Part shown: in pieces, positions 4,122-57,696 of the stretch
Layout of the letters: every line of letters begins with the position of its first letter
Numbering within the stretch: position 1 is the stretch's first letter
Assembly: GCA_029260115.1 (NCBI GenBank)
Contig: JAJDDW010000014.1
Location: 10,069-74,068, forward strand
DNA: 64,000 bases
Origin: Phycisphaerae bacterium
Lineage (GTDB): Bacteria > Planctomycetota > Phycisphaerae > UBA1845
Direction of reading: 5' to 3'
Position numbers and translations under genes: made by a program
Notes under the pieces: generated by a model
The model's input: only the letters and a program-made list of their open reading frames with translations
Told to the model about the DNA's origin: nothing
Database searches by the model: none

Positions 4122-4145
4122 AGCAACACCTCAATATTATACACT

Positions 4146-11589: not shown

Positions 11590-12669
11590 ATGAATCAAAT
11601 GTACAATCGTCGAGCAAAAATTATTCTCCACGAACGCCGAGCCAACGGATTTACCTTGATCGAATTACTGGTGGTCATAGCCATCATTGCATTGCTCATC
11701 AGTATTCTTCTTCCCAGTCTTCAAAGCGCACGAGACCACGCCAAATCGGTAGTCTGCGCATCCAATTTGCATCATGTGGGCCTAGCCATGGCGAACTATT
11801 TGTACGTCTCCAACGGTGTGTACCCACTATCGTATGCCTATCCGGAGAACAAAGACGGACAGTGGTCGCCTCGAGGCCAAACCGCCAATCACGCATTCGG
11901 CTACACGCATTGGTCTTCGGAACTCTACGAAGACGGGCAAGTAGGCGATAAAGCATTCCAATGCCCAAACTACGAAAATGGTGGCGCGCCGCGTACCAAT
12001 CCGGGTCTTGACCAGTCGGAGTGGGAAGGCGGTCAAGTTGACCAAAACGGTGACGTTAAACCCAACCTCTTGCAAGACCGTCAAGCGGGTAGAATGGCGT
12101 ACACGGCTAACGCTGCCATTATACCTCGGAATAAATTGTCGACATTGCTGTCAGGTGGCAAGCGCGTCAACCAATTTGTAAGTGAAAACAGACTAACCAA
12201 TCCTGGTAAAACGATTCTGGTGACGGAGTTTCTAAATAACTGGAAGGCATTGGGCATCCAAACGGGTGCTGGCATTCTGAGTAAATCTCATCGGCCTATT
12301 AACCCGTTCTACCATGTGGGTTCTGGATACGACGAATACAAAGCATCCTTAAAAGCACCCGGCTTTATCTATGGCTTGCCTACTGACAGGGAGACTTATG
12401 GATTATTGCCTGAGCGACAAGTGCGGGAAAAGGTCAATATCCTTGACGCATCATCTGGTATTTCTCAGATCAATGCCATCGGACGTCATCATCCAACTGG
12501 GGACAGGGTCTACAAAAAAAAGTTTGGTGGCGTAGCCAATTACATGTTCGGCGACGGTCATGCGGAAACGCTGACAGTCGTCGAAACCATGCGTCGTCGC
12601 ATGTGGGGAGATCAGTATTACGGGCTAAACGGCGAGTCTACAGTACTTGACTTCGACAGAAAGCCCTAA
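11590..12669 (+). CDS. DUF1559 protein: prepilin-type N-terminal cleavage/methylation domain plus H-X9-DG motif (Planctomycete type)
   Basis: N-terminus [28 protein letters not shown] has the class III signal G/FTLIEL. The C-terminal region ends …[17 protein letters not shown] Shine-Dalgarno-like aaaggatca lies upstream. Confidence 0.85.
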
Positions 12670-16555: not shown

Positions 16556-18940
16556 TTGCAGCACATAATACTTCCAGCATCATGCGACTTCCCAGCCTTG
16601 CCGTCTCCCTCGCTCATGGTTACGCTGCCGTTCGTGGAAGCAACCAGTATATCGCCATTTGAATCCCAAGATCGCAAGGCCTCATTCGCTTCGCCTTCGA
16701 CTGTTTCTCTTGATCTCATCTTGCAGCTTGTTCATGGATACTGGGGCTATGATACGCTTAGGCCATTGCAAGAAGAGGCCATTCGGGCAACGCTCGATGG
16801 TCGGGATTCGGTTGTGGTGATGCCCACGGGTGGTGGCAAATCCCTTTGCTATCAAGTTCCACCTGTCATTGCTAATCAAACGCACATTGTCATTTCTCCG
16901 CTTATCTCGTTAATGAAGGACCAGGTAGACGGCCTGAAAGCTTGCGACTACCCAGCCGCTGCCCTTCATAGCGGCATGACACCCGACGAACGATCCGAAA
17001 CCATGCACGATTTACAGTCCGGCAAACTTCGGCTGTTGTTCGTTTCGCCAGAGCGACTGGTCATGTCCGGTTTTTTACATCTGTTGAGTCAGCTCGATAT
17101 TCGGTCCTTCGCCATCGACGAAGCCCACTGCATCAGTCAATGGGGTCATGATTTTCGGCCTGAATATCGCCAGCTCGCGTTACTTCAAGATAGATTTCCC
17201 AAAGCTAGCGTCCATGCATACACCGCGACCGCGACGGAGCGCGTGCGCGAGGACATCGCAGCCCAACTATGTCTCACCCATCCAACGATGCTCGTGGGCG
17301 TTTTCGACCGCCCTAACTTAGTCTATCGCATCGTGCCACGCCTGGACGCGCAGGCCCAAGTGGTTGGGGTGGTCCACCGTCATCGGGGTGAAGCAGCGAT
17401 CATTTACTGCTTATCCCGCAAAGATACGGAAACCATGGCCAGCGCACTTAAGAAGGCCGGCATCAACGCCCGCGCTTACCATGCGGGCCTGAGCGCAGAC
17501 CAACGGCATCGCACCCAAGACGCATTCGCAAACGAATCGCTAGACGTCGTCACAGCCACCGTCGCCTTTGGTATGGGTATCGATCGCAGCAACGTACGGT
17601 GCGTCATCCATGCGACCATTCCCAAGTCCATCGAACATTATCAACAAGAGACAGGCCGAGCAGGGCGCGACGGTCTAGAAGCGGAATGCGTGCTCTTTTA
17701 CTCCGCAGCAGATATTATGCGTTGGAAATCGTTGTTCGAGCGTAGCGCTGAAGATTTCGATGATGCGGATAAAATGATCGCCGCCCAGATGCTGCTCCTT
17801 GATGAAATGAGACGATATTGTACAGGGCCACAATGCCGACACCGCGTACTATCGGAACATTTTGGCCAGGCGTACCCTACGCAAAATTGTAACGCCTGCG
17901 ACATATGCCTTGGCGAAACTGATGCAGCAGAAGAAGCAACTGAAATCGCCCAAAAAATTCTTTCTAGCGTCGCCAGACTGCATCGCCTAAGCGGCCTTAG
18001 TTATGGCGTGGGGCATCATGCCGATGTGCTACTGGGTGCGAACACGCAAGCGATTCGACAACGTGGGCACGACCAAGCGACCACCTATGGCTTACTTAAA
18101 GGCACGCCCAAAAAAGTACTCACACAATGGATGTATCAACTTTTCGATCAAAACTTACTCTCACGATCATCCGGCGATCTTCCCGTAGTGGAACTTAACG
18201 CATCATCGTGGGAGGTATTGCGCGGCAACCGGAAAGTTCAATTGATGCGGACCGCGATCACGGGAGTTAAGGAAGCGCGCATTTCTACCATATCTTGGGA
18301 CGGTGTGGATCGAGGCTTATTTGAACATTTGCGCGGCATCCGTCGAGAGATAGCCGAGCAAACTTCGGTGCCAGCCTTTGTCATCTTCAGCGATCGAACG
18401 CTACGCGATCTCGCCCGCCGTCGACCCACTGATTTGCCAGCATTTCGAACTGCGCATGGGATTGGTGACGCAAAGATTAAGAAATTCGGCGAAAAGTTCT
18501 GCAAAGAGATCAACAGTTACTGCAACGAACATAGCCTATCAGTCAATATTGTGATCGACCTGCAGCACGAAAAGACCCAAACATCGGTGCCAGCGACAAC
18601 AAAATCGACAGATACGATTGCTAATTCGAGTACGAATACGACGCAGGTAAAACAGGATGCCTTCGAAATGTTTGCTGAGGGAAAATCAATTAATGACGTC
18701 ATGGCCGCACTATCCCGTGCCCACACGACCACCGCTGGCTATCTCTGCGAATTTATTGAGGCTACCAGGCCTACTTCTGTCGAAACTTGGGTATCAAAGT
18801 CCATATACCTCGACGTCGCCCAGGCTGCAGACCGAGTCGGGTTCGATAAACTCAAGCCCATATATGAACACCTCAACGAAAAAGTGCCCTATCATCACAT
18901 CAGAATAGTGCTATCTCATGCCCGAAACCATCAAGGTTGA
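16556..18940 (+). CDS. recQ: ATP-dependent DNA helicase RecQ (helicase + RQC zinc/WH + HRDC + C-terminal HTH-like extension)
   Basis: YDTLRPLQEEAI…VVMPTGGGKSLCYQVP, DEAH box FAIDEAHCISQWGHDFRPEY, zinc-binding CRHRV…CNACDIC and an HRDC segment. The true start is probably downstream of 16556 (e.g. the Met at about 16616), because the first 20 codons look like leader sequence. Confidence 0.88.
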   Translation: MQHIILPASCDFPALPSPSLMVTLPFVEATSISPFESQDRKASFASPSTVSLDLILQLVHGYWGYDTLRPLQEEAIRATLDGRDSVVVMPTGGGKSLCYQVPPVIANQTHIVISPLISLMKDQVDGLKACDYPAAALHSGMTPDERSETMHDLQSGKLRLLFVSPERLVMSGFLHLLSQLDIRSFAIDEAHCISQWGHDFRPEYRQLALLQDRFPKASVHAYTATATERVREDIAAQLCLTHPTMLVGVFDRPNLVYRIVPRLDAQAQVVGVVHRHRGEAAIIYCLSRKDTETMASALKKAGINARAYHAGLSADQRHRTQDAFANESLDVVTATVAFGMGIDRSNVRCVIHATIPKSIEHYQQETGRAGRDGLEAECVLFYSAADIMRWKSLFERSAEDFDDADKMIAAQMLLLDEMRRYCTGPQCRHRVLSEHFGQAYPTQNCNACDICLGETDAAEEATEIAQKILSSVARLHRLSGLSYGVGHHADVLLGANTQAIRQRGHDQATTYGLLKGTPKKVLTQWMYQLFDQNLLSRSSGDLPVVELNASSWEVLRGNRKVQLMRTAITGVKEARISTISWDGVDRGLFEHLRGIRREIAEQTSVPAFVIFSDRTLRDLARRRPTDLPAFRTAHGIGDAKIKKFGEKFCKEINSYCNEHSLSVNIVIDLQHEKTQTSVPATTKSTDTIANSSTNTTQVKQDAFEMFAEGKSINDVMAALSRAHTTTAGYLCEFIEATRPTSVETWVSKSIYLDVAQAADRVGFDKLKPIYEHLNEKVPYHHIRIVLSHARNHQG

Positions 18941-39987: not shown

Positions 39988-40644
39988 TTACGGCTTATCC
40001 ATTACGGCGGTTGGCCAGGTTGAGGGGTCAATGTGCCAGTTGAGGTCGTCGCCAATAGTGACATGCTGCTGTCCCAATTCTCGATCCTCCAACATATAGT
40101 ATAGGCCAATGCGATTATGCTGCGATGGATCAAAACTCGATAAGCACGCAGCTGGAATGATCGCTTCTATCGAATAACCCGTTTTGCAAATTGACGAGGC
40201 TATTTCAATTCTATCATTGGAAATCGAAGGCGCTTGATCTTTAGCGCGCTTGATCATTGCGGTGCCAGCGACGGGTTTATTTTTTGCACCCCCACCTGCC
40301 GGCAGAAAGTAGAACTGTTGGCAATACTTCGTGGCTCGTCTATTCGCCCGCCCATCGCGCATATCGGTACATACGCGCAGATTGTCGCCCGCCCAATATC
40401 GCTTAGGGTCACAGACCGGCGCACGTTTTTTCCCTTCGACACAACACGCCACGGCTAATCCTTCTTCATGCCAACAGGCCCAGACTTTTCCAAAATCAGT
40501 TTGACCATCTAGCTGGCTCAGCGTTGGCAGAAGATACGCGTCGGTCCAATCTTGCAGTTTCCCGGTGAGCCGCGGTAGCTTACTGCGATACACAAGTGGA
40601 AACTCAAAATCGAACAGAAAGCGGTTCGGGATCAAAGTTGTCAT
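39988..40644 (-). CDS. Hypothetical cytoplasmic protein translationally coupled to the uvrA fusion gene
   Basis: An ATG at 40644 overlaps the TGA stop of the upstream ORF (ATGA), which favours the Met-17 start over the longer 40692 start. No recognisable domain. Confidence 0.55.
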   Translation of the reverse strand: MTTLIPNRFLFDFEFPLVYRSKLPRLTGKLQDWTDAYLLPTLSQLDGQTDFGKVWACWHEEGLAVACCVEGKKRAPVCDPKRYWAGDNLRVCTDMRDGRANRRATKYCQQFYFLPAGGGAKNKPVAGTAMIKRAKDQAPSISNDRIEIASSICKTGYSIEAIIPAACLSSFDPSQHNRIGLYYMLEDRELGQQHVTIGDDLNWHIDPSTWPTAVMDKP

Positions 40645-43600
40645 GCTGATTGCAACCTTTCCGATAAGTCCGTCTCGCGACATGCACGCCATACCTGACG
40701 CAACTGCTTAGTGTCGATTTGAGTGAGCGACCGTACCCAAAAGACCAGTCGGTCATAAGCAGGGTGTCGTTTAATATCTACGTCTAGGCCCAGGCGATCA
40801 ACTTGAGTCGGTGTAAACTGTCCACTCGCAGCTCGCAACTCTACGCGCAATCCTTTGCCCATATTGGTTACTATCTTACCGGCTGGCATCGGCTCACCGG
40901 GCACGGTAAACTGTCCCGCGGTTTTAGACGCCCAGGTAAACTCTACGTCAGACTGCAACGATCTAATTCGCCCCACAAGTGCCATGAGCATGTCAGGTTT
41001 CCAGCTAGCTACTTGCCGAGCCGACATCGACTTCTGTGACAAATGCCAGTTCATACCGAGCGACATCCACGGCTTATCGCTCGTAGGATTGGTCTGTACG
41101 GCTGACAACTTACCCTCGTAAGAAGCGATTGCCTTCTGGAGAAAGGCACGAAACGCAGTCTTTGAGACATCTTTGAAATCTCGAAGGTAAAGCTTAACTT
41201 CCTGCCAGCCGTTGTTGGGCGTGCGAAGGCGCGCGCGATCCCATTGGCCATAAATGGGCAGGTCGCGACGTTCGTCCAAGGATTTAATTTTAAGTTTAGC
41301 TAATTGGGCTGGTGTAAATGTTGCACTAGCTACGCGCAGTGAAACCTCGATTAAATCCTTACTACCAGTGAGAATATGAGCGAACCATGGCGTTGCATCT
41401 GGCGATTTTATTTCGATTCTCGTCCGATGATTCCAATCCGTCGGCGCAAAGTGACCAAGAGACTCGATCGTATTGACCAACCACACGAGCAAGGCTGACT
41501 CCCATTCGCTTGGCAGTCCATTATGGTCCAAATGATCGACCGTATGCCACGCTAGACCATCACGCTGCCAGGGCATTTTCACTTCTTGCCCCAAATCGAT
41601 TTTTTCGGTTTTGGACAGCTCTAGGTTAGCTTGGTCTTTTGCATTATGCGTGGTGCGTTCTTCAAACGGCCCAGCTAGAAGCACGGGCCGTAGCGCCTTG
41701 GCGGTGTGCGATTGTTTATTTTCAACGATCACTTGCGGCGGTCCCTCAACGACAAGCGACCCGCCCTTTTCACCGGCTTCCAGGCCAAGGTCGATAACCC
41801 AGTCCGCAGTCTTTATGACGTCCAAATTATGCTCAATACAGATACACGTATTGCCTAGGTCCACTAGGCGATGCAACACTTGCAACAGTTTTTTCAAATC
41901 GTCGAAGTGCAGCCCGGTCGTGGGTTCATCGAGAATGTACAGCGTCTTACCGGTCGACGGTCGACCTAGTTCCGCCGCTAGCTTAACGCGCTGCGCTTCG
42001 CCCCCAGATAGCGTCGGCGCAGGCTGGCCAATGTGAACATAACCTAAGCCCACGTCATCTAATGTTTGCAACATACGTCGAATTTTCGGTACGGTCACAA
42101 ACAATTCCAAAGCCTGCGACACGCGCATTTCTAACACATCAGCTATGCTCTTGCCACGATACTTCACTTCGAGCGTCTCAGGCACGTATCGCGCACCCTG
42201 ACAATCTTCGCACTCCACCCAGACATCCGGCAAGAAGTGCATTTCGATACACCGCTGCCCCATGCCCTCGCACGCTTCGCACCTTCCGCCAGGCCGATTA
42301 AAGCTAAATCGGCTAGGACGATATCCGCGAATTTTACTCATCGGAAGCTTGGCGAACAGCTCACGCATGGTATCGAAAAGACCAGTGTATGTGCCAGGAT
42401 TACTCGTGGGGCTGTTGCCAATGGGAGATTGATCCACGTTGATAACTTTGTCGATGTGCTCGATGCCCGTGATGCGATCATGGCCTCCTGCAACCAAACG
42501 CGCCCGATGCAATCGCGTAGCTAACGTGTTATACAATACATGAGAGACCAAGCTGCTCTTACCACTACCTGACACGCCTGTGACACATGTCAACCGCCCC
42601 AACGGAAACGATACATCAATCTCCTTGAGATTATGCTCCCGAGCGCCATATACGGTGAGCCAGGCCTGCGCCTCTTTGGATCGCACAACATCAACGATTT
42701 CACCTTCGTCGTCCATGCCAGCGAGGTCTGTGCGCGGCGGTGAAGAAACCGGCCGACGATTGGTCGGCACAGGAATGGAAGCTTTGCCCGAGAGGTACTG
42801 TCCAGTTAGCGATGCTCGGTTCTTGCGAATCGCAGCCACCGTACCGGATGCTGTGACCTCACCACCAAAGATGCCTGCCCCAGGACCAAAGTCGAGCACA
42901 TGGTCGGCCGCTTCGATCATCTCTCGATCGTGTTCGACGATGACCAGCGTATTACCAAGATCGCGCAAACGGCGCAGTGCGGTAGTTAGCCGATGATTGT
43001 CGCGGGGATGCAAGCCTATCGTCGGTTCGTCCAACACATAAAGCACGCCGGTAAGTCCTGTACCGATTTGCGAAGCCAGTTGAATGCGCTGGGATTCACC
43101 GCCGGATAATGTCGAAGCCGTTCGATGTAAATGTACATAGTCCAGCCCGACATCGACCAGAAATCGCAGTCGAGAGGTGATCTCGTGTAACAATTCTCCA
43201 GCTATTTTACGCTTGACCGCTGGCAATTTGAGCTTATCAAACCAAACAAGCGTCTGCGACAAAGGCCAAAGGCAAGCCTCGTGGATAGTGACACTATTGA
43301 CCTGCGTCGCGGCTGGGGCGGCATGAAGTCGCCCTCCCGCACAAGCATCGCAAGGCACGTCGGTGACTAAGTCCTCAAGCCGTTTTCGATATTGCCAACT
43401 CGATCGTGTCGCACGACCAATAGCCGGGAAAAATCCGCGCCAACGAAACCTCAGGCCTACATATTGTGCCTGCGCCGCACGCGACTTTTTCTTTCGGGCT
43501 GGCCCAGTGACAGTCACCCATGTTTCGTCTCCGCCATGCAAGAACGCTAGCTTGTGCTTCTCCGAAAGCTTGTTCCACGGGCAGTGCAAATCAAACTCAA

Positions 43601-45752
43601 CCTGCTCAGCCAGCGCTGACATCATCTCATACAATTGCCCGTCACGAGCAAGTTCGCCCCAACCAGCTATCGCGCCATCTGCAATGGACTGGGTCGGATG
43701 AACGACAATCGCGGCAGGACTAGCCCCTTGCTGCGTGCCAAGTCCCTCGCACGCCTCGCACCAACCCATGCGGCTGTTGAACGAAAAATGATGCGGCGAC
43801 AGTTCATCGTAACTCGTCCCACATTGATCGCAGGCGTGATGCTGGGAATAGCGAAACTCTGTCTCGTTGTTAGCGCGAGTCTTTGCAGTAGGCTTTTTAT
43901 CATCGACCAATTGAATCTGCATGACGCCGCTGCCCAAGGCTAACGCCTGCTCGATGCTATCGGTAATGCGAGAGGCCTGTGCCGCCCGAATAATGACGCG
44001 GTCCACGACGACTTCTACTCGATGGTCGCGCTTTTTATCAATGGCAATGGTTTCGCTAAGTTCATGTAGCGCGCCATCTACCCGCACCCGGCCGTAACCT
44101 TGACTGCGGAGTCGCTGAAAAAAGGATTCGTATGTTTCGCTACCCAGCGGTGCTATCGGCGACAATAACAAAGCCCGACGCCCGTTACCTAACTGCAAAA
44201 CTTTCTCAGCTATCTCATCACTAGATTGTGTACCGATGGGCACTTTACATTGTGGGCAAAACGCCTGGCCAATGCGGGTCCACAAAATGCGCATGTAATC
44301 GTAGACTTCTGTTATCGTGCCTACGGTAGATCGCGGTGATTTGCTGGTCGTTTTTCGCTCAATGCAGATAGACGGAGATAGGCCTTCCACATGATCTACG
44401 CGCGGCGGCTGAAGACGGCTCAAAAACTGTCTGGCGTACGAACTTAATGACTCGACATAGCGCCGCTGCCCCTCGGCATAAAGCGTATCAATCGAAAAAC
44501 TCGTTTTACCGCTACCACTAGGACCACTGCAAACCGTCGTTTTGTTTCGAGGAATCGTCACGTCTATATTTTTGAGATTGTGCTCACGCGCGCCAACTAC
44601 GCTAATGACCGTTTCTTTACGATGACGAGCCGCGGGCTTCAGCCCGCGCGGAGTTACGGTTTTTTTGCATGCTGCACTAACCTCAAGATTATCAAACATG
44701 TCTCGCAGCACCGCCCCCGTAGGCGACCGCTTCGACTTAGACACCCGCTTCGGCGTACCCTCAGCCACAATGCGCCCACCACCCGCCCCGCCTTCTGGAC
44801 CTAGGTCAATCAACCAATCCGCCGTCTTAATAACATCAAGGTTATGCTCGATCACCACAACGCTATTTCCTGATTCCACAAACCCGTGCAGCACCGCTAA
44901 GAGTTTCTTAATATCGTGAAAATGCAGGCCGGTAGTCGGCTCGTCAAGAATATACAAAGTCCGTCCTGTAGCCCGCTTCACTAACTCGCGAGCAAGTTTA
45001 ATACGCTGTGCCTCACCGCCGGAAAGCGTCGGCGAAGGCTGACCGAGCTTGAGATAATCCAACCCCACATCGTGCAGCGTCTGCAACATACGAGCAATTT
45101 TTGGCACATTGGCAAAGTGGGCCAAGGCCTCCTGCACATCCATCTCAAGCACGTCCGCAATGCTCTTACCTTTGAACTGGATTTGCAGCGTCTCGCGATT
45201 AAATCGATGCCCGCGACATATCTGGCATGTCACCCATATGTCAGCGAGAAAATCCATCTCCATGCGATGGCTGCCATTACCCTCACACGCTTCGCATCGA
45301 CCGCCACCAGCTTTCCCCGTGTGCACATTAAAGCTAAACCGTCCAGGCTTATAGCCTCGAACTTTGGCGTCAGTGAGCTTGGTATACAACGTCCGTATTT
45401 CATCGAATGCTTTGATATAAGTAGCCGGGTTAGAACGCGGCGTGCGACCGATGGGGCTTTGGTCTATAGCGATAACCTTATCCAAATGCGCTACGCCATC
45501 AATGTGGCTATGCAAACCAGGGCGAACTTTTATGGCTCCATTTAGATCACGGGCTAATGACTCCCACAAAATATCATTCACCAGCGAACTCTTACCCGAA
45601 CCCGACACGCCAGTCACACAAACAAACCGCTCAAGCGGAATGTCCACATCTATGTCGCGCAGGTTGTTATGTCGCGCCCCCACGACCGTTAGCCAAGGAC
45701 AATCCTCGCCGGGTGAACGAGGCTGAAGCTGAGTATTGCGCTTCGCCGTCAT
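40641..45752 (-). CDS. uvrA: UvrA C-terminal ABC module fused to a second complete UvrA unit and a ~335-aa duplicated C-terminal domain (1703 aa)
   Basis: aa 1-350 align to E. coli UvrA 606-940 (LTVVGARHNNL…VTGVSGSGKSSLVND…LSGGEAQRIKLAREL…ILDEPTTGLHFHDI). A second unit follows: N-module (VVGAREHNLKNIDVTIP…SGSGKTSFSIDTLYAEGQRRYVESLSSYARQF…LSGGESQRIQLASQIG…VLDEPTIGLH) then C-module (LTVYGAREHNLKEIDVSF…LSGGEAQRVKLAAEL…ILDEPTTGLHFDDL). A C-terminal domain with no recognisable family ends the protein. Confidence 0.85.
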   Translation of the reverse strand: MTAKRNTQLQPRSPGEDCPWLTVVGARHNNLRDIDVDIPLERFVCVTGVSGSGKSSLVNDILWESLARDLNGAIKVRPGLHSHIDGVAHLDKVIAIDQSPIGRTPRSNPATYIKAFDEIRTLYTKLTDAKVRGYKPGRFSFNVHTGKAGGGRCEACEGNGSHRMEMDFLADIWVTCQICRGHRFNRETLQIQFKGKSIADVLEMDVQEALAHFANVPKIARMLQTLHDVGLDYLKLGQPSPTLSGGEAQRIKLARELVKRATGRTLYILDEPTTGLHFHDIKKLLAVLHGFVESGNSVVVIEHNLDVIKTADWLIDLGPEGGAGGGRIVAEGTPKRVSKSKRSPTGAVLRDMFDNLEVSAACKKTVTPRGLKPAARHRKETVISVVGAREHNLKNIDVTIPRNKTTVCSGPSGSGKTSFSIDTLYAEGQRRYVESLSSYARQFLSRLQPPRVDHVEGLSPSICIERKTTSKSPRSTVGTITEVYDYMRILWTRIGQAFCPQCKVPIGTQSSDEIAEKVLQLGNGRRALLLSPIAPLGSETYESFFQRLRSQGYGRVRVDGALHELSETIAIDKKRDHRVEVVVDRVIIRAAQASRITDSIEQALALGSGVMQIQLVDDKKPTAKTRANNETEFRYSQHHACDQCGTSYDELSPHHFSFNSRMGWCEACEGLGTQQGASPAAIVVHPTQSIADGAIAGWGELARDGQLYEMMSALAEQVEFDLHCPWNKLSEKHKLAFLHGGDETWVTVTGPARKKKSRAAQAQYVGLRFRWRGFFPAIGRATRSSWQYRKRLEDLVTDVPCDACAGGRLHAAPAATQVNSVTIHEACLWPLSQTLVWFDKLKLPAVKRKIAGELLHEITSRLRFLVDVGLDYVHLHRTASTLSGGESQRIQLASQIGTGLTGVLYVLDEPTIGLHPRDNHRLTTALRRLRDLGNTLVIVEHDREMIEAADHVLDFGPGAGIFGGEVTASGTVAAIRKNRASLTGQYLSGKASIPVPTNRRPVSSPPRTDLAGMDDEGEIVDVVRSKEAQAWLTVYGAREHNLKEIDVSFPLGRLTCVTGVSGSGKSSLVSHVLYNTLATRLHRARLVAGGHDRITGIEHIDKVINVDQSPIGNSPTSNPGTYTGLFDTMRELFAKLPMSKIRGYRPSRFSFNRPGGRCEACEGMGQRCIEMHFLPDVWVECEDCQGARYVPETLEVKYRGKSIADVLEMRVSQALELFVTVPKIRRMLQTLDDVGLGYVHIGQPAPTLSGGEAQRVKLAAELGRPSTGKTLYILDEPTTGLHFDDLKKLLQVLHRLVDLGNTCICIEHNLDVIKTADWVIDLGLEAGEKGGSLVVEGPPQVIVENKQSHTAKALRPVLLAGPFEERTTHNAKDQANLELSKTEKIDLGQEVKMPWQRDGLAWHTVDHLDHNGLPSEWESALLVWLVNTIESLGHFAPTDWNHRTRIEIKSPDATPWFAHILTGSKDLIEVSLRVASATFTPAQLAKLKIKSLDERRDLPIYGQWDRARLRTPNNGWQEVKLYLRDFKDVSKTAFRAFLQKAIASYEGKLSAVQTNPTSDKPWMSLGMNWHLSQKSMSARQVASWKPDMLMALVGRIRSLQSDVEFTWASKTAGQFTVPGEPMPAGKIVTNMGKGLRVELRAASGQFTPTQVDRLGLDVDIKRHPAYDRLVFWVRSLTQIDTKQLRQVWRACRETDLSERLQSA

Positions 45753-47770
45753 CGCTTCGCCGCCTTCGCTTTAGCTTTAGTTTTAGTTTTCTTGATAGCC
45801 GGCTTTTTTCGCTTGACCACAGGGCGACGCGTAACAGGAATCTCGATACGTTCCTCACCGCGCAGATATTTACCCGTAAGAGATGTTTTCGACCGCATAA
45901 TCGTTTGCAGGTTTCCGTGAGCCATAACCTTCCCACCGCGCACGCCTGGACCAGGGCCAAAATCCACGATTTCGTCGGCGAGCCTCATCGTCTGCTCGTC
46001 GTGCTCTACCACGATAACCGTATTACCCATGTCACGGAGCTGGCACAGCGATTTCAACAGTCGATCATTATCTCGTGCATGTAGGCCAATACTTGGCTCA
46101 TCTAAAATATAAAGCACACCCACCAAACCCGCGCCAATCTGTGAAGCTAGGCGGATACGCTGCGACTCACCACCGGAAAGCGTCGGAGCCGTGCGTTCCA
46201 GCGTGAGATATTCTAACCCCACGTCACAAAGAAAACCCAACCGGCCTACAACTTCCTTCAACGCTTCCACGGCTATGAACTGCTGCGTTTGACTAAGCTT
46301 GAGTTTACTGAAAAATTCCCGGACATCGTTGATTGCTAAGCCCGACACTTCGTTGATATTAAGCCCGCCAAGTCGCACGGCTAAAGCCTGCGTATTCAGT
46401 CGCCCGCCTTGGCAATCAGGACACTGCCGACGCTGCATGTATTTTTCGTAATACGCGCGAACCATACTAGATTTAGCTTTGCGATGTTTATCTCGCAGGT
46501 CCGCGATGATACCATCAAACGTCGCGCCATGACGCCAGACCCCGCCTGACCAACGCCATTCAAAAGCAATATGTGTTTCACCTAGCCCATGAAGCAACGC
46601 ATCTTTCGCTTTTTGAGGAAGCTTAACCCACGGCGTCTTGAGATCGAAGCCGACATGCGCGGCTACACCTCGATATATATGGCGACGCCATCGACCGATT
46701 CTGGTTCGCATGGGTTGTATCGCGAGTTTCAAGAAAGATTTCTTCGGGTCGGGCACAAGCAATTCGGGATCAAAGTCAAACGTCTCCCCCATACCATCGC
46801 ACGTCGGACACATGCCCGACGGCGCGTTAAAACTCAGCAACTGCGGCGTCGGCGGCTCAAAACTCAGATTACACTTCGTACATGCATAATGAGATGACAA
46901 CAATATGTCGCTATCGGCATCTTTTGCAGATACGCGCTTAGATCGCTTGACTGTTTTAGTTTTCCCTTGGACAGCCTTGTCGATCAAGCTCGAAGCCACA
47001 GACTTGGACGAGTCCACGATTTGAACGATCAACGTACCATCACCCATCTTCAACGCCGCTTCAACAGCCTCCGCCAGTCGCGGACGCAGCGTAGCCGTCA
47101 TAACAAGTCGATCAATCACAACCTCAATATAGTGTCTGATATGACGGGCTAGCTTGGGCGCATCTGTGAGCGACACAACTTCGCCATCAACCCGCGCTCG
47201 CGCGTATCCCTGCCGAATCATATCTTCAAAAAGGTCTTTATATTCACCCTTCTGCCCTCTAATAACCGGCGCCAGGATCAGAAATTTGGTTTGCTTGGGG
47301 ATCGCCAAAATACGCGCGATTATTTGCTCACGACTCTGAGCAGAAATAACTTGCCCGCAGCCAGGGCAATGCTGCGTCCCCACCCGAGCGAAAAGCACGC
47401 GCAGATAATCATTAATCTGCGTGATCGTACCGACCGTACTACGCGGGTTCCAGCCGGAGGACTTTTGCTGAATCGAAATCGCAGGACTAAGCCCCGTGAT
47501 CTGATCGACGTCCGGCTTGGGCAATTGCCCCAGAAACTGCCGCGCGTAAGAACTCAGCGATTCGAGATAGCGGCGTTGACCTTCGGCGAAGAGTGTATCG
47601 AATGCGAAACTGCTTTTGCCGCTACCCGATACACCGGTCAGGCAGATCAGCTGGCCGCGTGGTAGCTTGAGCGAAACATTGCGAAGATTGTGCTCCCGAG
47701 CACCCTTAACTGTAATCGTTTTCGGTTCCATGCGATTAGCATTGGCTAGCCCAAAAATGCCACGCGACAA
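45749..47770 (-). CDS. uvrA: UvrA N-terminal ABC module (signature domain I with UvrB-binding and insertion domains), separate ORF
   Basis: 673 aa aligning to E. coli UvrA 1-605 (ITVKGAREHNLRNVSL…TGVSGSGKSSFAFDTLFAEGQRRYLESLSSYARQF…LSGGESQRIRLASQIGAGLVGVLYILDEPSIGLHARDN). It ends in a Lys-rich tail. Its stop overlaps the next ORF's ATG (ATGA at 45749-45752). Confidence 0.88.
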   Translation of the reverse strand: MSRGIFGLANANRMEPKTITVKGAREHNLRNVSLKLPRGQLICLTGVSGSGKSSFAFDTLFAEGQRRYLESLSSYARQFLGQLPKPDVDQITGLSPAISIQQKSSGWNPRSTVGTITQINDYLRVLFARVGTQHCPGCGQVISAQSREQIIARILAIPKQTKFLILAPVIRGQKGEYKDLFEDMIRQGYARARVDGEVVSLTDAPKLARHIRHYIEVVIDRLVMTATLRPRLAEAVEAALKMGDGTLIVQIVDSSKSVASSLIDKAVQGKTKTVKRSKRVSAKDADSDILLSSHYACTKCNLSFEPPTPQLLSFNAPSGMCPTCDGMGETFDFDPELLVPDPKKSFLKLAIQPMRTRIGRWRRHIYRGVAAHVGFDLKTPWVKLPQKAKDALLHGLGETHIAFEWRWSGGVWRHGATFDGIIADLRDKHRKAKSSMVRAYYEKYMQRRQCPDCQGGRLNTQALAVRLGGLNINEVSGLAINDVREFFSKLKLSQTQQFIAVEALKEVVGRLGFLCDVGLEYLTLERTAPTLSGGESQRIRLASQIGAGLVGVLYILDEPSIGLHARDNDRLLKSLCQLRDMGNTVIVVEHDEQTMRLADEIVDFGPGPGVRGGKVMAHGNLQTIMRSKTSLTGKYLRGEERIEIPVTRRPVVKRKKPAIKKTKTKAKAKAAKR

Positions 47771-47796: not shown

Positions 47797-48438
47797 TCAT
47801 TTCGTCGTTGTCTTAGACGCAGTTAATTTATCCAGTGATCGCACCGTCGGCGCAAATTCCAATCGATCTACACGCCAATGCTTGTTTTCTTGTACCATTG
47901 ATAACACCAGCACAACGGCCGCATTCGGATCGCCATTCGGGTCATCCAAATTAATCAAAATCTTACATTCCATCACGCCATCATCCGCCCCGGCCATCTG
48001 ACGTAAACCGCGCTGAATCAATCGAGTTTCCATTGGCTCAAGCGACGAGCCGATATCACCGACATATTGACCAATTGTCGGCGACCAAAGATGAACCACC
48101 CGATATAGCAACTCATCACGCGTCAAAATACCAGGCAGCCTAGAAACAATTGCATCAGGCGCGCAGACATCAAACTCAATATGTAGCGCTGCCGCACGAT
48201 CCTTCGGCGTAGCCGCGAGAAAATCTTCCTTAAGCGCCCGCAACAGTACAAACGCAACCTGCTTAGGGGTTGCGCTTTCGTCTAGCACCTGACCAAAATG
48301 CGTTACCGTCTTAACTTGCACATTTTCTGGAATATCGTGACCAGCCAAACGAACGTCTCGGCTGCATGAACTCCCAACAAAAAGCAAGAATAGACCCAAT
48401 GACCCAGTGATTAATCGTTCTTTATACATAGTTTCCAA
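47797..48438 (-). CDS. Hypothetical lipoprotein, first gene of the uvrA operon
   Basis: 213 aa. Signal peptide LGLFLLFVGSSCS with a lipobox-like Cys, 26 nt upstream of the uvrA N-half gene. Confidence 0.5.
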   Translation of the reverse strand: METMYKERLITGSLGLFLLFVGSSCSRDVRLAGHDIPENVQVKTVTHFGQVLDESATPKQVAFVLLRALKEDFLAATPKDRAAALHIEFDVCAPDAIVSRLPGILTRDELLYRVVHLWSPTIGQYVGDIGSSLEPMETRLIQRGLRQMAGADDGVMECKILINLDDPNGDPNAAVVLVLSMVQENKHWRVDRLEFAPTVRSLDKLTASKTTTK

Positions 48439-48541
48439 AGCTTACCCGCCTATCCCTACGTTGCCAACTACCGCCATCCTTGTCGGCCAACCAAGAGATA
48501 GTTACAATACGCTCCGGAACCTTCATAAGGACGCCTCAAGC

Positions 48542-49063
48542 ATGCCGGAATTCAACACAAACCTCTGGGCACCCTGGCGCATGGAGTACATCCGCTCGCT
48601 CGACCAAGAAAGCCAAGACGACGGATGCTTCCTGTGCAACTATTGGGCACATCCCGAGCAAGACTGTGAAAACCATGTCATCTGGCGCGACGAAAACGCC
48701 TATGTGGTCATGAACCGCTTCCCATACACCAATGGCCACCTGCTAATCGCCCATGCGGGGCATAAAGGGGATATCACCGAGCTATCTTCAGACGAGTTTG
48801 CTGAAATGGGCCAACTCATTCGCGCCTGCGTAGCATTACTACGGGCCAGTGTGAACGCGCAAGGCTTTAACATCGGTTACAATCTCGGACAATGTGCCGG
48901 CGCGGGACTACCAGGCCATCTTCACGCCCACGTCGTACCCCGCTGGTCTGGCGATACCAACTTCATGGCTGTCCTAGGTGAATCCCGTGTCATCCCCGAT
49001 GCCCTCGACGCCATGCACAAACAACTGATTGACGCGATCGTCGAAACCAATCCTTTTTCTTAA
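48542..49063 (+). CDS. HIT-family nucleotide hydrolase/transferase
   Basis: LWAPWRMEYI, and the histidine triad HLHAHVVPR. The ATG at 48542 avoids overlap with the divergent lipoprotein gene. The longer 48407 ORF start is unlikely. Confidence 0.8.
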   Translation: MPEFNTNLWAPWRMEYIRSLDQESQDDGCFLCNYWAHPEQDCENHVIWRDENAYVVMNRFPYTNGHLLIAHAGHKGDITELSSDEFAEMGQLIRACVALLRASVNAQGFNIGYNLGQCAGAGLPGHLHAHVVPRWSGDTNFMAVLGESRVIPDALDAMHKQLIDAIVETNPFS

Positions 49064-49086: not shown

Positions 49087-50196
49087 GTGACAAATAACAC
49101 GCCCGCATCATCATTGGCTGCTTACGCGACGTTACCACCGACTGGCACGTCGCGCGCTCATCGAGAAACTGGTAAACCTTGGCTCGATCCCTTCGAGTTA
49201 GACCGACATCGCATCATCGCATCAACATCATTTCGCCGTCTCGAAGGCAAGTCGCAGGTATTCGCACCTGACTTCCACGACCATTTTCGCACCCGCCTAA
49301 CCCACACCATCGAAGCGGCCCACATTGCACGCATGTTAGCCAGGGCATTAGGCGCAAACGAATCATTGGCTGAAGTCATCACACTCGCCCACGACCTCGG
49401 CCATCCGCCATTTGGCCACGCCGGCGAAGCTGCCTTACAAGACATGATGCGCGACCACGACGGCTTCAATCACAACGCCCACTCAGTGCGCGTAGTCGAT
49501 TACCTGGAGCATCCATTCCCCCAGTTCCGCGGATTAAATCTCACCCAAGCGACGCTAGCTGGCCTAGCAGCACACGCAACACCTTACGATAAGCCAGACG
49601 CGCAAGCGCCCCCACCATCGATAGAATCACAAATAGTCTCCTTGGCTGATCGGATTGCTTACAATACGCACGATGCAGAAGACGCGCTCGGCGCGGGCAT
49701 GATCGACACGCAGCAGCTCGACGGCCTTGCCCTCTGGCAAGCAGCCTGCCATCGCACCGATGTAGGACCAATCAACCAGGCCAATGTTTTCACCCTGCGA
49801 CGAACGGTGTTTGATGCCATCCTGCAGGACACCATTGAAGACGTCGTAACTACAACGCTCGATCAGTTACAAAAAGAAGAGCCAGACAAGCACACATCCT
49901 TTGCCCCGTGCGTAATGATGTCAGCAGAAATGCTGCAGCGATTTGAGAATTTAGAGCAGTTCCTTCAAATCAACATCTATAACCACGTAGATGTAGCCCG
50001 CGTGGACGGGGAGGGCCAGGCAATAGTACGCAACCTCTTCACCACACTATGCAGCGACCCAAAAAAATTACCGCCAAGATTTCTAGCCCGCGTCGAAGAC
50101 CAAGGCCATCATCGCGTAGTTTGCGACTACCTAGCCGGTATGAGCAACCGCTTCTGCAAGAAGCAACACGAGCGCCTGACCGCCACAAGCACCTAA
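49087..50196 (+). CDS. dGTPase-like HD-domain triphosphohydrolase
   Basis: RLTHTIEAAHIARMLA…LAHDLGHPPFGHAGE…LADRIAYNTHDAEDA, the Dgt family HD motif. Confidence 0.85.
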   Translation: MTNNTPASSLAAYATLPPTGTSRAHRETGKPWLDPFELDRHRIIASTSFRRLEGKSQVFAPDFHDHFRTRLTHTIEAAHIARMLARALGANESLAEVITLAHDLGHPPFGHAGEAALQDMMRDHDGFNHNAHSVRVVDYLEHPFPQFRGLNLTQATLAGLAAHATPYDKPDAQAPPPSIESQIVSLADRIAYNTHDAEDALGAGMIDTQQLDGLALWQAACHRTDVGPINQANVFTLRRTVFDAILQDTIEDVVTTTLDQLQKEEPDKHTSFAPCVMMSAEMLQRFENLEQFLQINIYNHVDVARVDGEGQAIVRNLFTTLCSDPKKLPPRFLARVEDQGHHRVVCDYLAGMSNRFCKKQHERLTATST

Positions 50197-53679: not shown

Positions 53680-56600
53680 CTAACTTCTAGCGTTAACGGA
53701 TGCGCGTTTGGCTTCTTCGAGCAGTTGTTTAATTTTCGCCTTACGAGCCGCCTGATCAGCACCTATCATGGTGACAGTTTCTACTGGCGCTTGTTTTTCG
53801 GCGAGTAAGTCGTAGCCCTGGTCAGGTGTCAGCTTGGCTTCAGGACCATTGAACGCCGGAATCTGTCGCGCCGCGTGTGTCACACCATGAATAGGATGCG
53901 TTTGGCTGATCGGCGGCACGCTTTGCAAGGTATGCTCAAGACGCTGCTGAGCGCGATTGGTTTCCTGTACCCATTCGCTTAGCGTCTGCGACGATCGAGA
54001 CGATTCATGGCGCACTTGTTCGATGGCCTGCTTGGCAGTGCTTTGAAGACTTCCCAGACCAGACTTCGTGATTGATTGGATTCTCTCAGACACCTGTATG
54101 GTCGTGTTTTTTAGCTTTGCCATGTCAGTCTGAGCTTCAGTTCTGGACTCGTTGAATTGTTTGATTTGTTCCTGAGCGTCCAGGCTAGATTTCGATAACG
54201 CGGAGAACACTTTGCGGACGGCTGTACATACTTGTTCCAGTTGGGCAGCGTGTTCTTTTGCGCCAGCTACGATTTCGCCAGGCTGGGCTAACGCCTCTGC
54301 GACGTTGGCTTGTAACTGGGCAGACTTCCTCGTGGCTACGCGTAGCTGCTTTTCGATGTCGATCGTTTGCTTGGTAAACTCGTTTATCATTTGCATACCA
54401 GCATCTGTCGTGTCAGCCATGGCTGATAGGTGCTGTTGAAGTTCCTGGGTTGAGGTTGTCGTTTCGAGCTGCAACTGTTCGTGTGTTTCGATTATACAAC
54501 CAGCCGACTTGATGAGCGTGTCCAAGCTTGTGATCTGCTGGTTGGCTGTCCCTGATATCGTAGTGAGGTTTTCGTAAGTTTCTTTAGCGTCAACCAATTC
54601 CTCTCGCGTAGATTTGGCGACGGCCTGCGCTTTGCTAAGCACCTTGGCAATGGTGTTTACCTGATCCGTTAATTTTTCGTAGGCTTCGCTGCGCAGTGCG
54701 ACATCATCTACATGCTGACCGATTTGGTCATCGAAGTCTTTTATATTCTCAGCGGTTGTCGTCTGTTGAACATCTTTGGGTTGGGGCGTTACTATTTGAG
54801 CCTGAGCGTAAGTATCCGACACCATCTTGGACGTTGCTTCGGCCTTTGCGGAGAGGTCCCAAACGTCCTGAATCATGCGATCAATTTTCGCGGTCGTCTC
54901 TTCGGCTAGCTGCTGAGCATTGGCGGAGGCTTTTTCAACCTGCTGCATGACGGACTGCCCGTCTACATTGACTTGTGTCAATTTCTTGAGCAGGCTCGAA
55001 GCTGCGGCGTGATGCGATTGCAATCTACCCGCTTTTTCATCGGCCGCGGCTATGGCAGGTTGTAATAGTTCAACGGCTTTGTCAGCCTTGTTTACTAATC
55101 GCTGAAGGCTATCGGTTTGCCCATCGCGTTCACTGAGCATGTGCCCAAGCTTGGTAGACATTTTTTCAACGTGTAATATTTTTTCGTCAGCCGTGGCTAT
55201 GGCAGGCTGTAGCAATCCAACTGTTTTATCCGCTTTGTTGATGAGACTCTGAATGCTTTCACGATGTCCATTTTGACCGCAAAGCATATGCTCAATATTG
55301 GTAGATACTTTTTCTGCGTGCGAGGCTTTTTCGCTTAATGAATTCAATCGTTCGCATGCGCCACCAACTTCCAATAAAGAATTAGAGATGCTTCTTTGCA
55401 AAGATTCAACGCGTCCACAGGCGTTATTAACATCGGTTGTCATGGCTCGCCCACTGTCCACTGCCGAGGATAATCTGGCGAGGGTTTCTTGTGGTTGGCG
55501 CTGTAATTCGACAACTGTAGACTGCAAATCTTGGACCATAGCCTTGGTCGCGTTTGCTCGTGAACAGAGATCTTCAATTTGTGCGTCCAACTCAACCTGT
55601 TGTCCAACCAGCGAATTATGCTTCTTTTCTTGGTCAACATGCTGTAGTGTTAGCTGCGCCAATTGTTTTTTTGTCGTATGCATCACAATCGTCGCATTGT
55701 CCTGCAACTTACTTACTTCTTGTCTTGTTTGTGCCGCCTTGACTTCAATCGTCTCAACAAACTCTTTCGAGACGGTGTCTACGTTATGCCGGAAGGCTTC
55801 TTCTTTGATTACCGTGATTTTTTCTACGTCTCGGGTAGCGTCAGCGCGCGTCTTGGCCCATGCGCCTTGCATGGCTGCTACAAACTCGCTGGTCATTTGC
55901 TTCGTCGCTTCTCGCTGCTCGTCGAGCGCATCTTTGGTAAGTTTCGAGAGGCTAGATTTGAATCCTACGATCGATTCGTTCACTACTTCGCTAAGCGTCT
56001 TGGCTAGCTGGTTTTTTTCTTTTTCGATCACCATGGCGTATTGACGCTGCGCATCTTCGCTCACGTGGCTAATCTGCTGGGAGGCGAGTTCTGCGGCATC
56101 ATGGCTGGCGCGATGGCTCTCTTTCAATTCCTTACGCGCTTGTTCTAAACGGCCTTGGATGGCTTGCGAAGCTTGACGCTGTGCATCTTCGCTCACATGG
56201 CTAATCTGCTTACGCACGAGTTCTGCGGCGTCATGGCTAGCACGCTGGCTTTCTTTTAACTCCTTGCGCACTTGATCCAAACCTTCTTGAATGGCTTGCG
56301 ATGTTTGCTGAGATTGTTCGATTATATCTGTGGCTTGTTGAGCGGTGTTGTGGATGTTTTCGCGGCAAGCATCGGCGTCGGTCATGGCTGTCATGAGTAG
56401 GGAGATGCGTTGTTGCACAGAATCGGCTCGTTCGACGAGGGTTTCGGCGAAAGCGGACAGTTGGGCCTCGACTTTTACGGCTCGATCGCAGGTATTTTCG
56501 ATGCGATGCAGCTGGGGCTGAACTTCGTTCGCAGCGCCACCGATGCGCATGGATTCATTTTCGAGTTCGCCCAGTTGATCTTGAACCTCAACCACGATCG

Positions 56601-57696
56601 ATTTTGCACGGTGTTCTAGCTTCGTCGTCGTTTGTTCGGCATGGCGCAGTGTTTGTTCCAGCTTGGTGATAAGCGTTCGCGCCCGCTCTGACATATTTGT
56701 AGCGTCGTCGCCTTGGTCGTTTGATGCTGCGACATTGATGTCGTCACCCTTCATAGCTTGGATAGTTGAATCGACGCGTGAGACTAGTTTCGACATCAGC
56801 GCATCCTCCTGAACGGCACAAACAATGGACTTACTCGGTTGAGATTTCTGGCTTTGATTGGCTGACATTTCGCGTACGAGTTCTGCGGTGACAGACGACT
56901 GACCTGCGCTATAGGCAGCGACCATGCTGGCATCCGCGAGCCGGTTAATAAGTCGAGGTATGCCGTGGGTTATTATATGAACTACAGCAATCGCAGCGGG
57001 ATCGAAAATTTCTTTGTCACCCGCCCCGGCTATGCGCAGACGATGTGCGATGTATTCCTGAGTCTGCGCGGAGGTAAATTTGTGTAATCTAAGCTCGGAA
57101 GCAAGCTGCTGACGCAGTCGATCGAATCGCGGTTGACCTAGCATATCAATCGTTCGTGGCTGACCGACGAGCAGCATGGTTAATAGGCGATTGTCATCTC
57201 GACCTAAATCGATGAGTGATTCTAATGTAGACATTGCCTCGATGGAGAGATTTTCGGCTTGGTCTACAATGAGAACGGGGAGCCTATCTTGACGGCGCGC
57301 GTCTTCGAGTCGACGGCGCAGCCTAGCTAGTCCTCGCTTGGCGTTATATTGCGTTGGCAACGTGACACCAAAACCCTTGCAGGTTTCACGTATGATATCC
57401 ATTTGTCCATCTACCGGGCATTTCACGACGATGGCCGGGTCTTGTGGGTCTAGCTTGGTGAGTAGCGATCTTATCAGGAGCGTTTTACCGGTCCCCGATT
57501 CTCCCACGACAAAACCCAGGCCTTGACGGTAGCGAAGCTCACATTCCATAGACGCGAGCACTTCTTCTATGTCAGGATTGGTGAAAAGGAACTCTAGCTG
57601 AATCCGATCTTCAAACGGCATACAGCGTAGCCCAAAGAATTTTTCATACATGTTTATCGTCTCCGCGCTTACGGACTGATCCCTGTCATGATGCAC
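53680..57696 (-). CDS. Giant cytoplasmic protein: N-terminal ExeA/GspA-like AAA ATPase (AAA_22) + ~1000-aa coiled coil with internal repeats
   Basis: N-terminal ~290 aa: FGLRCMPFE…GFVVGESGTGKTLLIRSL (Walker A), LPVLIVDQAENL (Walker B), QEYIAHRL. The remainder is heptad-rich Q/A/E/K sequence carrying two in-frame tandem duplications. Confidence 0.8.
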   Translation of the reverse strand: MHHDRDQSVSAETINMYEKFFGLRCMPFEDRIQLEFLFTNPDIEEVLASMECELRYRQGLGFVVGESGTGKTLLIRSLLTKLDPQDPAIVVKCPVDGQMDIIRETCKGFGVTLPTQYNAKRGLARLRRRLEDARRQDRLPVLIVDQAENLSIEAMSTLESLIDLGRDDNRLLTMLLVGQPRTIDMLGQPRFDRLRQQLASELRLHKFTSAQTQEYIAHRLRIAGAGDKEIFDPAAIAVVHIITHGIPRLINRLADASMVAAYSAGQSSVTAELVREMSANQSQKSQPSKSIVCAVQEDALMSKLVSRVDSTIQAMKGDDINVAASNDQGDDATNMSERARTLITKLEQTLRHAEQTTTKLEHRAKSIVVEVQDQLGELENESMRIGGAANEVQPQLHRIENTCDRAVKVEAQLSAFAETLVERADSVQQRISLLMTAMTDADACRENIHNTAQQATDIIEQSQQTSQAIQEGLDQVRKELKESQRASHDAAELVRKQISHVSEDAQRQASQAIQGRLEQARKELKESHRASHDAAELASQQISHVSEDAQRQYAMVIEKEKNQLAKTLSEVVNESIVGFKSSLSKLTKDALDEQREATKQMTSEFVAAMQGAWAKTRADATRDVEKITVIKEEAFRHNVDTVSKEFVETIEVKAAQTRQEVSKLQDNATIVMHTTKKQLAQLTLQHVDQEKKHNSLVGQQVELDAQIEDLCSRANATKAMVQDLQSTVVELQRQPQETLARLSSAVDSGRAMTTDVNNACGRVESLQRSISNSLLEVGGACERLNSLSEKASHAEKVSTNIEHMLCGQNGHRESIQSLINKADKTVGLLQPAIATADEKILHVEKMSTKLGHMLSERDGQTDSLQRLVNKADKAVELLQPAIAAADEKAGRLQSHHAAASSLLKKLTQVNVDGQSVMQQVEKASANAQQLAEETTAKIDRMIQDVWDLSAKAEATSKMVSDTYAQAQIVTPQPKDVQQTTTAENIKDFDDQIGQHVDDVALRSEAYEKLTDQVNTIAKVLSKAQAVAKSTREELVDAKETYENLTTISGTANQQITSLDTLIKSAGCIIETHEQLQLETTTSTQELQQHLSAMADTTDAGMQMINEFTKQTIDIEKQLRVATRKSAQLQANVAEALAQPGEIVAGAKEHAAQLEQVCTAVRKVFSALSKSSLDAQEQIKQFNESRTEAQTDMAKLKNTTIQVSERIQSITKSGLGSLQSTAKQAIEQVRHESSRSSQTLSEWVQETNRAQQRLEHTLQSVPPISQTHPIHGVTHAARQIPAFNGPEAKLTPDQGYDLLAEKQAPVETVTMIGADQAARKAKIKQLLEEAKRASVNARS
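55035..55330 (-). repeat. In-frame tandem duplication (~147 bp x2) inside the giant coiled-coil gene
   Basis: DNA repeat catcggccgcggctatggcaggttgtaatag… versus cgtcagccgtggctatggcaggctgtagcaatcc…. Protein repeat …NKADKTVGLLQPAIATADEK… versus …NKADKAVELLQPAIAAADEK…. Confidence 0.75.
56040..56305 (-). repeat. In-frame tandem duplication (132 bp x2) inside the giant coiled-coil gene
   Basis: ttgacgctgcgcatcttcgctcacgtggctaatctgctg… recurs 132 bp later as ttgacgctgtgcatcttcgctcacatggctaatctgct…. Protein repeat SQAIQEGLDQVRKELKESQRASHDAAELVRKQISHVSEDAQRQ versus SQAIQGRLEQARKELKESHRASHDAAELASQQISHVSEDAQRQ. Confidence 0.85.

Follow-up and report, generated by a model that had tools for sequence, protein, structure and literature searches.

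How is a UvrA protein put together when half of it is encoded by a gene of its own and the other half is fused to a second UvrA? This question is raised by a 64,000-nucleotide stretch of DNA, here called the window, from a Phycisphaerae bacterium (GenBank assembly GCA_029260115.1, contig JAJDDW010000014.1, positions 10,069 to 74,068), in which a pair of open reading frames (ORFs) on the minus strand fills positions 40641-47770. The original prediction, made from the sequence alone, had described the two frames as a UvrA split between its ATP-binding cassette (ABC) modules, with the second half continuing into another full UvrA and an extra domain. Both ORF1 (673 amino acids) and ORF2 (1703 amino acids) were found exactly at the predicted positions, and the module order agrees with Pfam, NCBIfam, and structure alignments, including a C-terminal extension of about 340 amino acids after the last UvrA module. 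The pair probably constitutes a two-chain, pseudo-dimeric UvrA of the class I type that acts in nucleotide excision repair (NER). In the list below, N and C are N-terminal and C-terminal ABC modules, numbered by UvrA unit, and X is the C-terminal extension.

45749..47770, minus strand: ORF1 as a mechanical frame, TTG start at 47770, 673 amino acids
45749..47731, minus strand: uvrA-N gene (N1), a full UvrA N-terminal ABC module, ATG start, 660 amino acids
45752..45829, minus strand: Lys/Arg-rich C-terminal tail of N1, RRPVVKRKKPAIKKTKTKAKAKAAKR, past the last residue that aligns to a solved UvrA
45749-45752, minus strand: overlap of the uvrA-N stop and the ORF2 start, ATGA; the end of N1 reads AAG CGA TGA
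40641..45752, minus strand: ORF2, 1703 amino acids, a single polypeptide C1-N2-C2-X by Pfam, NCBIfam, solved-structure matches, and motifs
44688..45752, minus strand: C1, a UvrA C-terminal ABC module with zinc module 3, ORF2 residues 1-~355
42750..44612, minus strand: N2, a second N-terminal ABC module with a UvrB-binding domain and a more divergent insertion domain, residues ~381-1001
41676..42665, minus strand: C2, a second C-terminal ABC module with zinc module 3, residues ~1030-1359
40644..41675, minus strand: X, a linker and a tandem pair of ~155-amino-acid alpha+beta domains, residues ~1360-1703

The true start of ORF1 is most likely the ATG at 47731, because homologues begin with MEPK (MEPKTITVKGAREHNL) at this point and the NCBI protein P0153 is an identical 660-amino-acid protein. 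N1 carries Walker A, signature, Walker B, and H-loop motifs, zinc modules 1 and 2, and the UvrB-binding and insertion domains, which Pfam recognizes as PF17760 (UvrA_inter, E-value 6.8e-37) and PF17755 (UvrA_DNA-bind, 1.3e-27), respectively. The same families match N2, with E-values of 2.4e-31 for PF17760 and 1.7e-14 for a partial PF17755 domain, and both N modules thus keep a UvrB-binding domain. In regular-expression searches, each of the four ATPase motifs (Walker A, LSGGE, Walker B, and H-loop) occurs four times across the two proteins. The CxxC motif occurs 12 times (four in N1, two in C1, four in N2, and two in C2), equivalent to three zinc modules in each unit. Both proteins pass the TIGR00630 cut-off of 729.8 bits (ORF2 at 1750 and ORF1 alone at 785). 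The NF001503 cut-off of 1147 bits is passed by ORF2 (1809), while ORF1 falls below it at 807, as expected of half a protein. The top matches among solved structures are the class I UvrAs 9gxk, 3zqj, 2r6f, and 3pih, with 2vf7 and 7sh1 well below them. An open frame of 1703 codons that holds three full sets of ATPase motifs is not a product of chance.

The break between the two proteins lies where the original prediction had placed it, at the linker that joins the ABC modules. When compared with Geobacillus stearothermophilus UvrA (PDB 2r6f), the alignment of N1 ends at residue 623 and that of C1 begins at residue 625, with amino acids 16-354 of C1 spanning residues 625-957 of the solved protein. 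Beyond this alignment lie a basic tail of 23 amino acids on N1 and a leader of 15 amino acids on C1. Judged from this comparison, the break is seamless, with no structural residues lost or duplicated. The final 30 amino acids of ORF1 include 14 lysine or arginine residues and no aspartate or glutamate, and comparable basic tails are present on N1 of two relatives (L002 and L007). We read the tail as a leftover of the inter-module linker. In 1991, Myles and Sancar reportedly found that limited proteolysis cuts Escherichia coli UvrA at its hinge to release N-terminal and C-terminal fragments of ~70 kDa and ~35 kDa, and the position of the split in the window presumably matches this protease-sensitive site. 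The ATGA overlap points to translational coupling of uvrA-N with ORF2. Such coupling is not obligatory, because the two genes are unlinked in other species.

The same layout recurs in related organisms, in upwards of 40 species. In the relative L049 (GCA_024280855.1, 91% identity), N1 overlaps a continuous ORF2 of 1703 amino acids by 4 nucleotides, exactly as in the window, and an identical overlap is present in L050 (a JGI (Joint Genome Institute) metagenome, 87% identity), where ORF2 leaves the contig end at 1681 amino acids. A broader survey, in which one genome per species was scanned with an alignment of X (A2), yielded 47 loci, all of them labelled as metagenome-assembled genomes (MAGs) of Phycisphaerae or Planctomycetota. 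In 27 of these loci, C1-N2-C2-X forms a single open frame of 1683-1906 codons from stop to stop, and all 27 split ORF2 homologues have kept eight or more CxxC motifs along with three motif sets. N1 was seen in 18 loci and is a gene of its own in 17 of them. N1 and ORF2 may overlap (ATGA or TAATG), be parted by an in-frame stop with an ATG after it (L032), or have a spacer of 0.2-2.5 kb between them. Identity with the window, averaged over 18 loci, is 67.7% for N1, 75.6% for C1, 61.4% for N2, 75.7% for C2, and 46.1% for X. Because N1 is at least as well conserved as N2, the detached module is under purifying selection. A protein search with N1 also returned more than 100 clusters (at 90% identity) of stand-alone N-module proteins of 620-700 amino acids, one of them encoded on a 5.25-Mb contig, which carry the source name 'excinuclease ABC subunit UvrA'. 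The original prediction had proposed a search of related genomes, and by the junctions found there the split layout is real and lineage-wide in planctomycetes of the Phycisphaerae type.

In two relatives, other genes sit between uvrA-N and ORF2 (L002 at 3932-5742 and L007 at 2859-5049). Both of these spacers contain an ORF for a trypsin-like protein of ~300 amino acids. The L007 spacer additionally carries an ORF with a motif like that of IS200/IS605-type transposases (PEHAHILI), and the L002 spacer a nucleotidyltransferase-like ORF of 190 amino acids. Mobile DNA may have been behind the separation of the two genes in these species.

Further states of fission are also represented. L004 encodes a stand-alone protein of 787 amino acids (8565-10928) composed of a basic low-complexity leader, C2, and X, and the genes upstream are unrelated and on the opposite strand. 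P0296 and P0321 are complete proteins in which a Lys-rich leader of ~250 amino acids precedes a C module and X. These stand-alone genes would have arisen by yet another fission, this time at the second hinge. In L001, the nearest species representative (75-89% identity), an in-frame TGA followed by GTG occurs in the linker between C1 and N2 (7090-7105), and this TGA is missing from the closer relatives L049 and L050. L001 may therefore have three genes for N1, C1, and N2-C2-X, or may carry a base error in a single MAG. Every break observed lies in an inter-module linker, and the new termini bear basic low-complexity tails. The leaders that precede C1 in the ORF2 homologues of L041 (5609-6000), L044, and L039 are long and rich in Ala, Lys, and Pro, with repeats resembling those of histone H1 (e.g. 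AAKPSAAKAGEAPVAPKPAGRVAAKPAGGKPAPGKP). These basic leaders and the Lys-rich tail of N1 suggest that new termini were turned into basic and possibly DNA-contacting tails.

Two additional loci were set aside. L051 (CP070744.1, a 5.67-Mb record) was considered as an arrangement without C1, and was rejected on account of a run of N at ~11930-12030. This run separates uvrA-N from the second UvrA unit, and C1 is missing there together with the first ~67 residues of N2. In L030 (1-5595), C1-N2-C2-X is spread over three frames with two frame changes, and this locus was treated as a pseudogene or a poor MAG assembly.

The two units of the window are not close copies of each other. The sequence identity is 41% between N1 and N2 and 60% between C1 and C2, and the duplication is therefore old. 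We compared the modules with longer proteins, namely partial proteins from Isosphaeraceae, Gemmataceae, and Thermoguttaceae, and unsplit metagenome proteins that include one of 2334 amino acids. N1 shares 55-61% identity with the first N module of these proteins, whereas N2 shares 41-44% with that module. Likewise, C1 is 67-75% identical to their first C module, compared to 58-64% for C2. For the Planctomycetia proteins, the corresponding values are 55-60% for N1 and 68-75% for C1, as opposed to 41-44% and 59-64% for the modules of the second unit. N1 and C1 are thus orthologous to the first unit of the unsplit proteins, which indicates that the tandem duplication predates the divergence of Phycisphaerae and Planctomycetia and that the fission is derived. 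Proteins of 2266-2343 amino acids with all of N1-C1-N2-C2-X in one unsplit chain also exist. One is a frame of 2266 codons in L035 that includes N1, and the others are P0283 and P0286. X is therefore not bound to the split.

The original prediction had regarded the whole arrangement as undescribed. This does not hold for the covalent fusion of two uvrA genes, which has been reported, in a single sentence, for Planctomycetes of the Tuwongella/Gemmata type in the Planctomycetia (PMC8567305, Fig. 13) and which also has a counterpart in NCBIfam NF001885 (PRK00635), a double-UvrA model of 1809 positions. The window proteins score far under the 3054-bit cut-off of this model (379.6 bits for ORF1 and 978.4 for ORF2) and therefore do not belong to that family. 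We take NF001885 to represent the chlamydial double UvrA. With the tandem-doubled UvrA of Planctomycetes, the window proteins have in common the N-C-N-C order that arose from an old duplication and the retention of all motifs in both units. They differ in that N1 is a separate gene cut off at the hinge and in that X, at 340 amino acids, has been appended. In the literature searched, which comprised open-access texts, no description was found of X, of fission at the hinge, or of the several fission states. Doubled UvrA proteins are already known, but the hinge fission, the further fission states, and X appear to be undescribed.

The X region has no match to any Pfam family, even at an E-value of up to 10, and no sequence match in the PDB. 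It consists of an internal tandem duplication, with halves that are 29% identical over 94 amino acids (E-value 2e-10) and that both start with a PW..G..WH motif. An AlphaFold2 (AF2) model built from 14 sequences has a mean predicted local distance difference test (pLDDT) value of 85. The fold likenesses of this model, with their scores, include PSPTO_3016 (2kfp, 7.6), DR2400 (DUF419; 2a1v, 7.5), the C-terminal domain of T4 MotA bound to double-stranded DNA (5jlt, 7.3), and YjbR (2fki, 6.9). Because a Foldseek search with X returned nothing significant, these likenesses are treated as fold resemblance only. On the model, X resembles a tandem pair of YjbR/MotA 'double-wing'-like folds, with a further resemblance to YdhG/DUF1801. 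Unlike YjbR/DUF419 and YdhG/DUF1801, X matches no family profile, is composed of two tandem copies, and is found only fused to UvrA. Profile searching across 1.84 billion representative proteins turned up 452 relatives of X. The domain is C-terminal in every hit long enough to judge, and most of the shorter hits look fragmentary. Among the sequences retrieved, X is a domain that occurs only at the C terminus of these UvrA proteins. About 50 positions are invariant, many of which are Trp, His, Arg, or Asp (W41, W48, H49, R89, W102, H105, and the stretch D139-Y147 in A2 numbering are examples), and the window copy has 14 Trp residues and a net charge of +7. By analogy with the folds it resembles, X may bind DNA or a partner.

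In the assembly that we favour, the first chain (N1, 660 amino acids) would provide the first ABC module together with its UvrB-binding and insertion domains. The second chain (1703 amino acids) would provide the matching C1 module, covalently joined to the full second unit N2-C2 and the tail X. N1 would join C1 non-covalently via the usual head-to-tail interface of ABC modules, and N2-C2 would be the second protomer. The original prediction had called UvrA a head-to-tail dimer, and this wording needs correction. The two ABC modules are arranged head-to-tail within a protomer, and the dimer itself is two-fold symmetric. The resulting complex would be the equivalent of a UvrA dimer, with four ATP sites, six zinc modules, and two UvrB-binding domains, distributed over two diverged halves of which only one bears X. 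This complex would scan DNA for lesions and load UvrB in NER, and X, as a tandem 'double-wing'-like module, would probably add a one-sided contact to DNA or a partner. Relative to class I UvrA proteins (E. coli, G. stearothermophilus 2r6f, Thermotoga maritima 3pih, and Mycobacterium tuberculosis 3zqj), every domain of the protomer is present twice. However, there are two unequal chains of 660 and 1703 amino acids, diverged halves, and an extra domain, rather than a homodimerising chain of ~940 amino acids.

Several points weigh against this assembly. We reasonably infer the physical association of N1 with C1 from sequence, and this is itself a point on the negative side. An alternative pairing, in which C1 would associate with N2 and N1 with C2, may also be compatible with the sequences. 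N1 is absent from the ~10 kb fetched in eight loci, and in the 5.25-Mb genome the 9 kb that follow N1 hold unrelated genes and no ORF2. Finally, an ordinary single uvrA elsewhere in these genomes may do the bulk of NER. No second UvrA-like gene was present among the large window ORFs that were scanned.

The most probable of the rival explanations, which we nevertheless consider unlikely, is that the pieces do not reassemble as N1·C1 and N2·C2. N1 might act alone, perhaps in binding UvrB or in regulation, or the pairing might be permuted such that C1 pairs with N2, while C2-X pairs with N1 or with nothing, and a simple pseudo-dimer would not form. The frequent lack of linkage between N1 and ORF2 would fit this possibility, as would the covalent placement of C1 nearer to N2 than to N1. 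In addition, the other fission states (L004, P0296, P0321, and possibly the separation of C1 from N2-C2-X in L001) could mean that the modules recombine freely. In contrast, orthology with the unsplit proteins favours the ancestral pairing of N1·C1 and N2·C2, and the break at the canonical hinge is seamless. A lone ABC N module would also be without a partner signature motif for its own ATP site, and N1 is as well conserved as N2.

A role outside NER is improbable. On this explanation, the proteins would be UvrA paralogues devoted to drug or toxin resistance, in the manner of class II UvrA, DrrC, and Ecm16, or to another form of DNA scanning, with X as a specificity module. The resemblance of X to YjbR/MmcQ-type folds could be taken in its favour, and members of the YjbR/MmcQ family occur in an antibiotic gene cluster. 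However, while class II proteins (Deinococcus radiodurans UvrA2, 2vf7, and Ecm16, 7sh1) share the ABC-ABC core with zinc modules, they lack the UvrB-binding domain that both N modules of the window have kept. Class I structures outscore 2vf7 and 7sh1 by far, and ORF2 passes the NCBIfam equivalog cut-offs for UvrA. The flanking genes are of the housekeeping type and unrelated to repair (an ArfB-like RF-1 domain protein, a GT2 glycosyltransferase, a multihaem cytochrome, and HIT and HD-domain proteins), and a biosynthetic cluster is absent. Moreover, published work takes the doubled protein, which was detected alongside UvrB, UvrC, and UvrD, to be the UvrA of Planctomycetes (PMC8567305).

Programmed -1 frameshifting at the ATGA overlap, which would yield one full-length chain in vivo, is very improbable. 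ORF2 does overlap ORF1 and sits in the -1 frame relative to it, but the stop is not preceded by a slippery heptamer (GCG GCG AAG CGA TGA), and in relatives the two genes differ from this frame relationship, share one frame with a stop between them, or are separated by kilobases. Hardly any weight can be given to an artefact, whether a one-base indel at 45749-45752 that splits a gene of ~2370 amino acids or a second unit that is a collapsed tandem duplicate: unsplit relatives exist (L035, P0283, P0286) and frameshifts do occur in some MAG loci (L030), but the check for such errors was negative in that L049 and L050, two independent assemblies at 87-91% identity, have the same ATGA junction, no shared error explains junctions that vary by species from overlaps to in-frame stops and gene-bearing spacers, and the 41% and 60% identities between the units fit neither a recent nor a collapsed duplicate.

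The two-chain UvrA genes of the window have the following neighbours and other features of note.

39988..40644, minus strand: downstream gene of 218 amino acids, CBM9-like beta-sandwich; its ATG overlaps the ORF2 stop (ATGA)
47797-48438, minus strand: hypothetical protein of 213 amino acids (up213), directly upstream of N1, no Pfam hit
48407-49063 and 49087-50196, plus strand: HIT-family and HD/dGTPase-like genes, divergently transcribed and syntenic with up213
16556-18940, plus strand: RecQ helicase (DEAD, Helicase_C, RecQ_Zn_bind, RQC, HRDC, and C-terminal HTH_40), 22 kb from the UvrA genes
12768-16403, plus strand: ORF of 1211 amino acids with no Pfam hits
53680-57696, minus strand: ORF of 1338 amino acids with an N-terminal AAA_22/AAA_16 ATPase domain only

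The CBM9-like gene lies beside the UvrA gene in most relatives, and its counterpart in L049 encodes 219 amino acids and overlaps ORF2 by 4 nucleotides. It is a possible operon partner of ORF2. As a functional partner it was rejected, given its absence downstream of ORF2 in the divergent L038; nothing was found in the short sequence that remains in L041. Its co-location is explained equally well by plain synteny, because the wider neighbourhood (the HD, HIT, and up213 genes) is syntenic as well. The latter three genes are syntenic in 12 related loci, and up213 may share a promoter region with uvrA-N. The RecQ helicase gene has no evident link to the UvrA genes.

UvrA is a symmetric homodimer that acts on a single asymmetric lesion, and its identical protomers hide which ATP sites and which UvrB-binding domain do what. 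This lineage would offer a natural pseudo-dimer with halves that are encoded separately or can be told apart and that have diverged by 40-60%; one half is cut at the hinge, and an extra domain is present on only one. The four ATP sites and the two UvrB-binding domains could thus be mutated one by one. The inter-module linker of UvrA tolerates repeated natural gene fission, and X is an uncharacterised domain confined to these proteins. For annotation, the Phycisphaerae genes for 'UvrA' proteins of 620-700 amino acids would represent real subunits, and not truncated or frameshifted ones. More speculatively, it is conceivable that the UvrA of Phycisphaerae is an obligately asymmetric modular sensor, with its modules distributed over one, two, three, or more genes. 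In such a sensor, the clade-specific X might give one side a new contact with DNA, a lesion, or a partner, and the detachable N1 might be an exchangeable subunit that controls UvrB loading.

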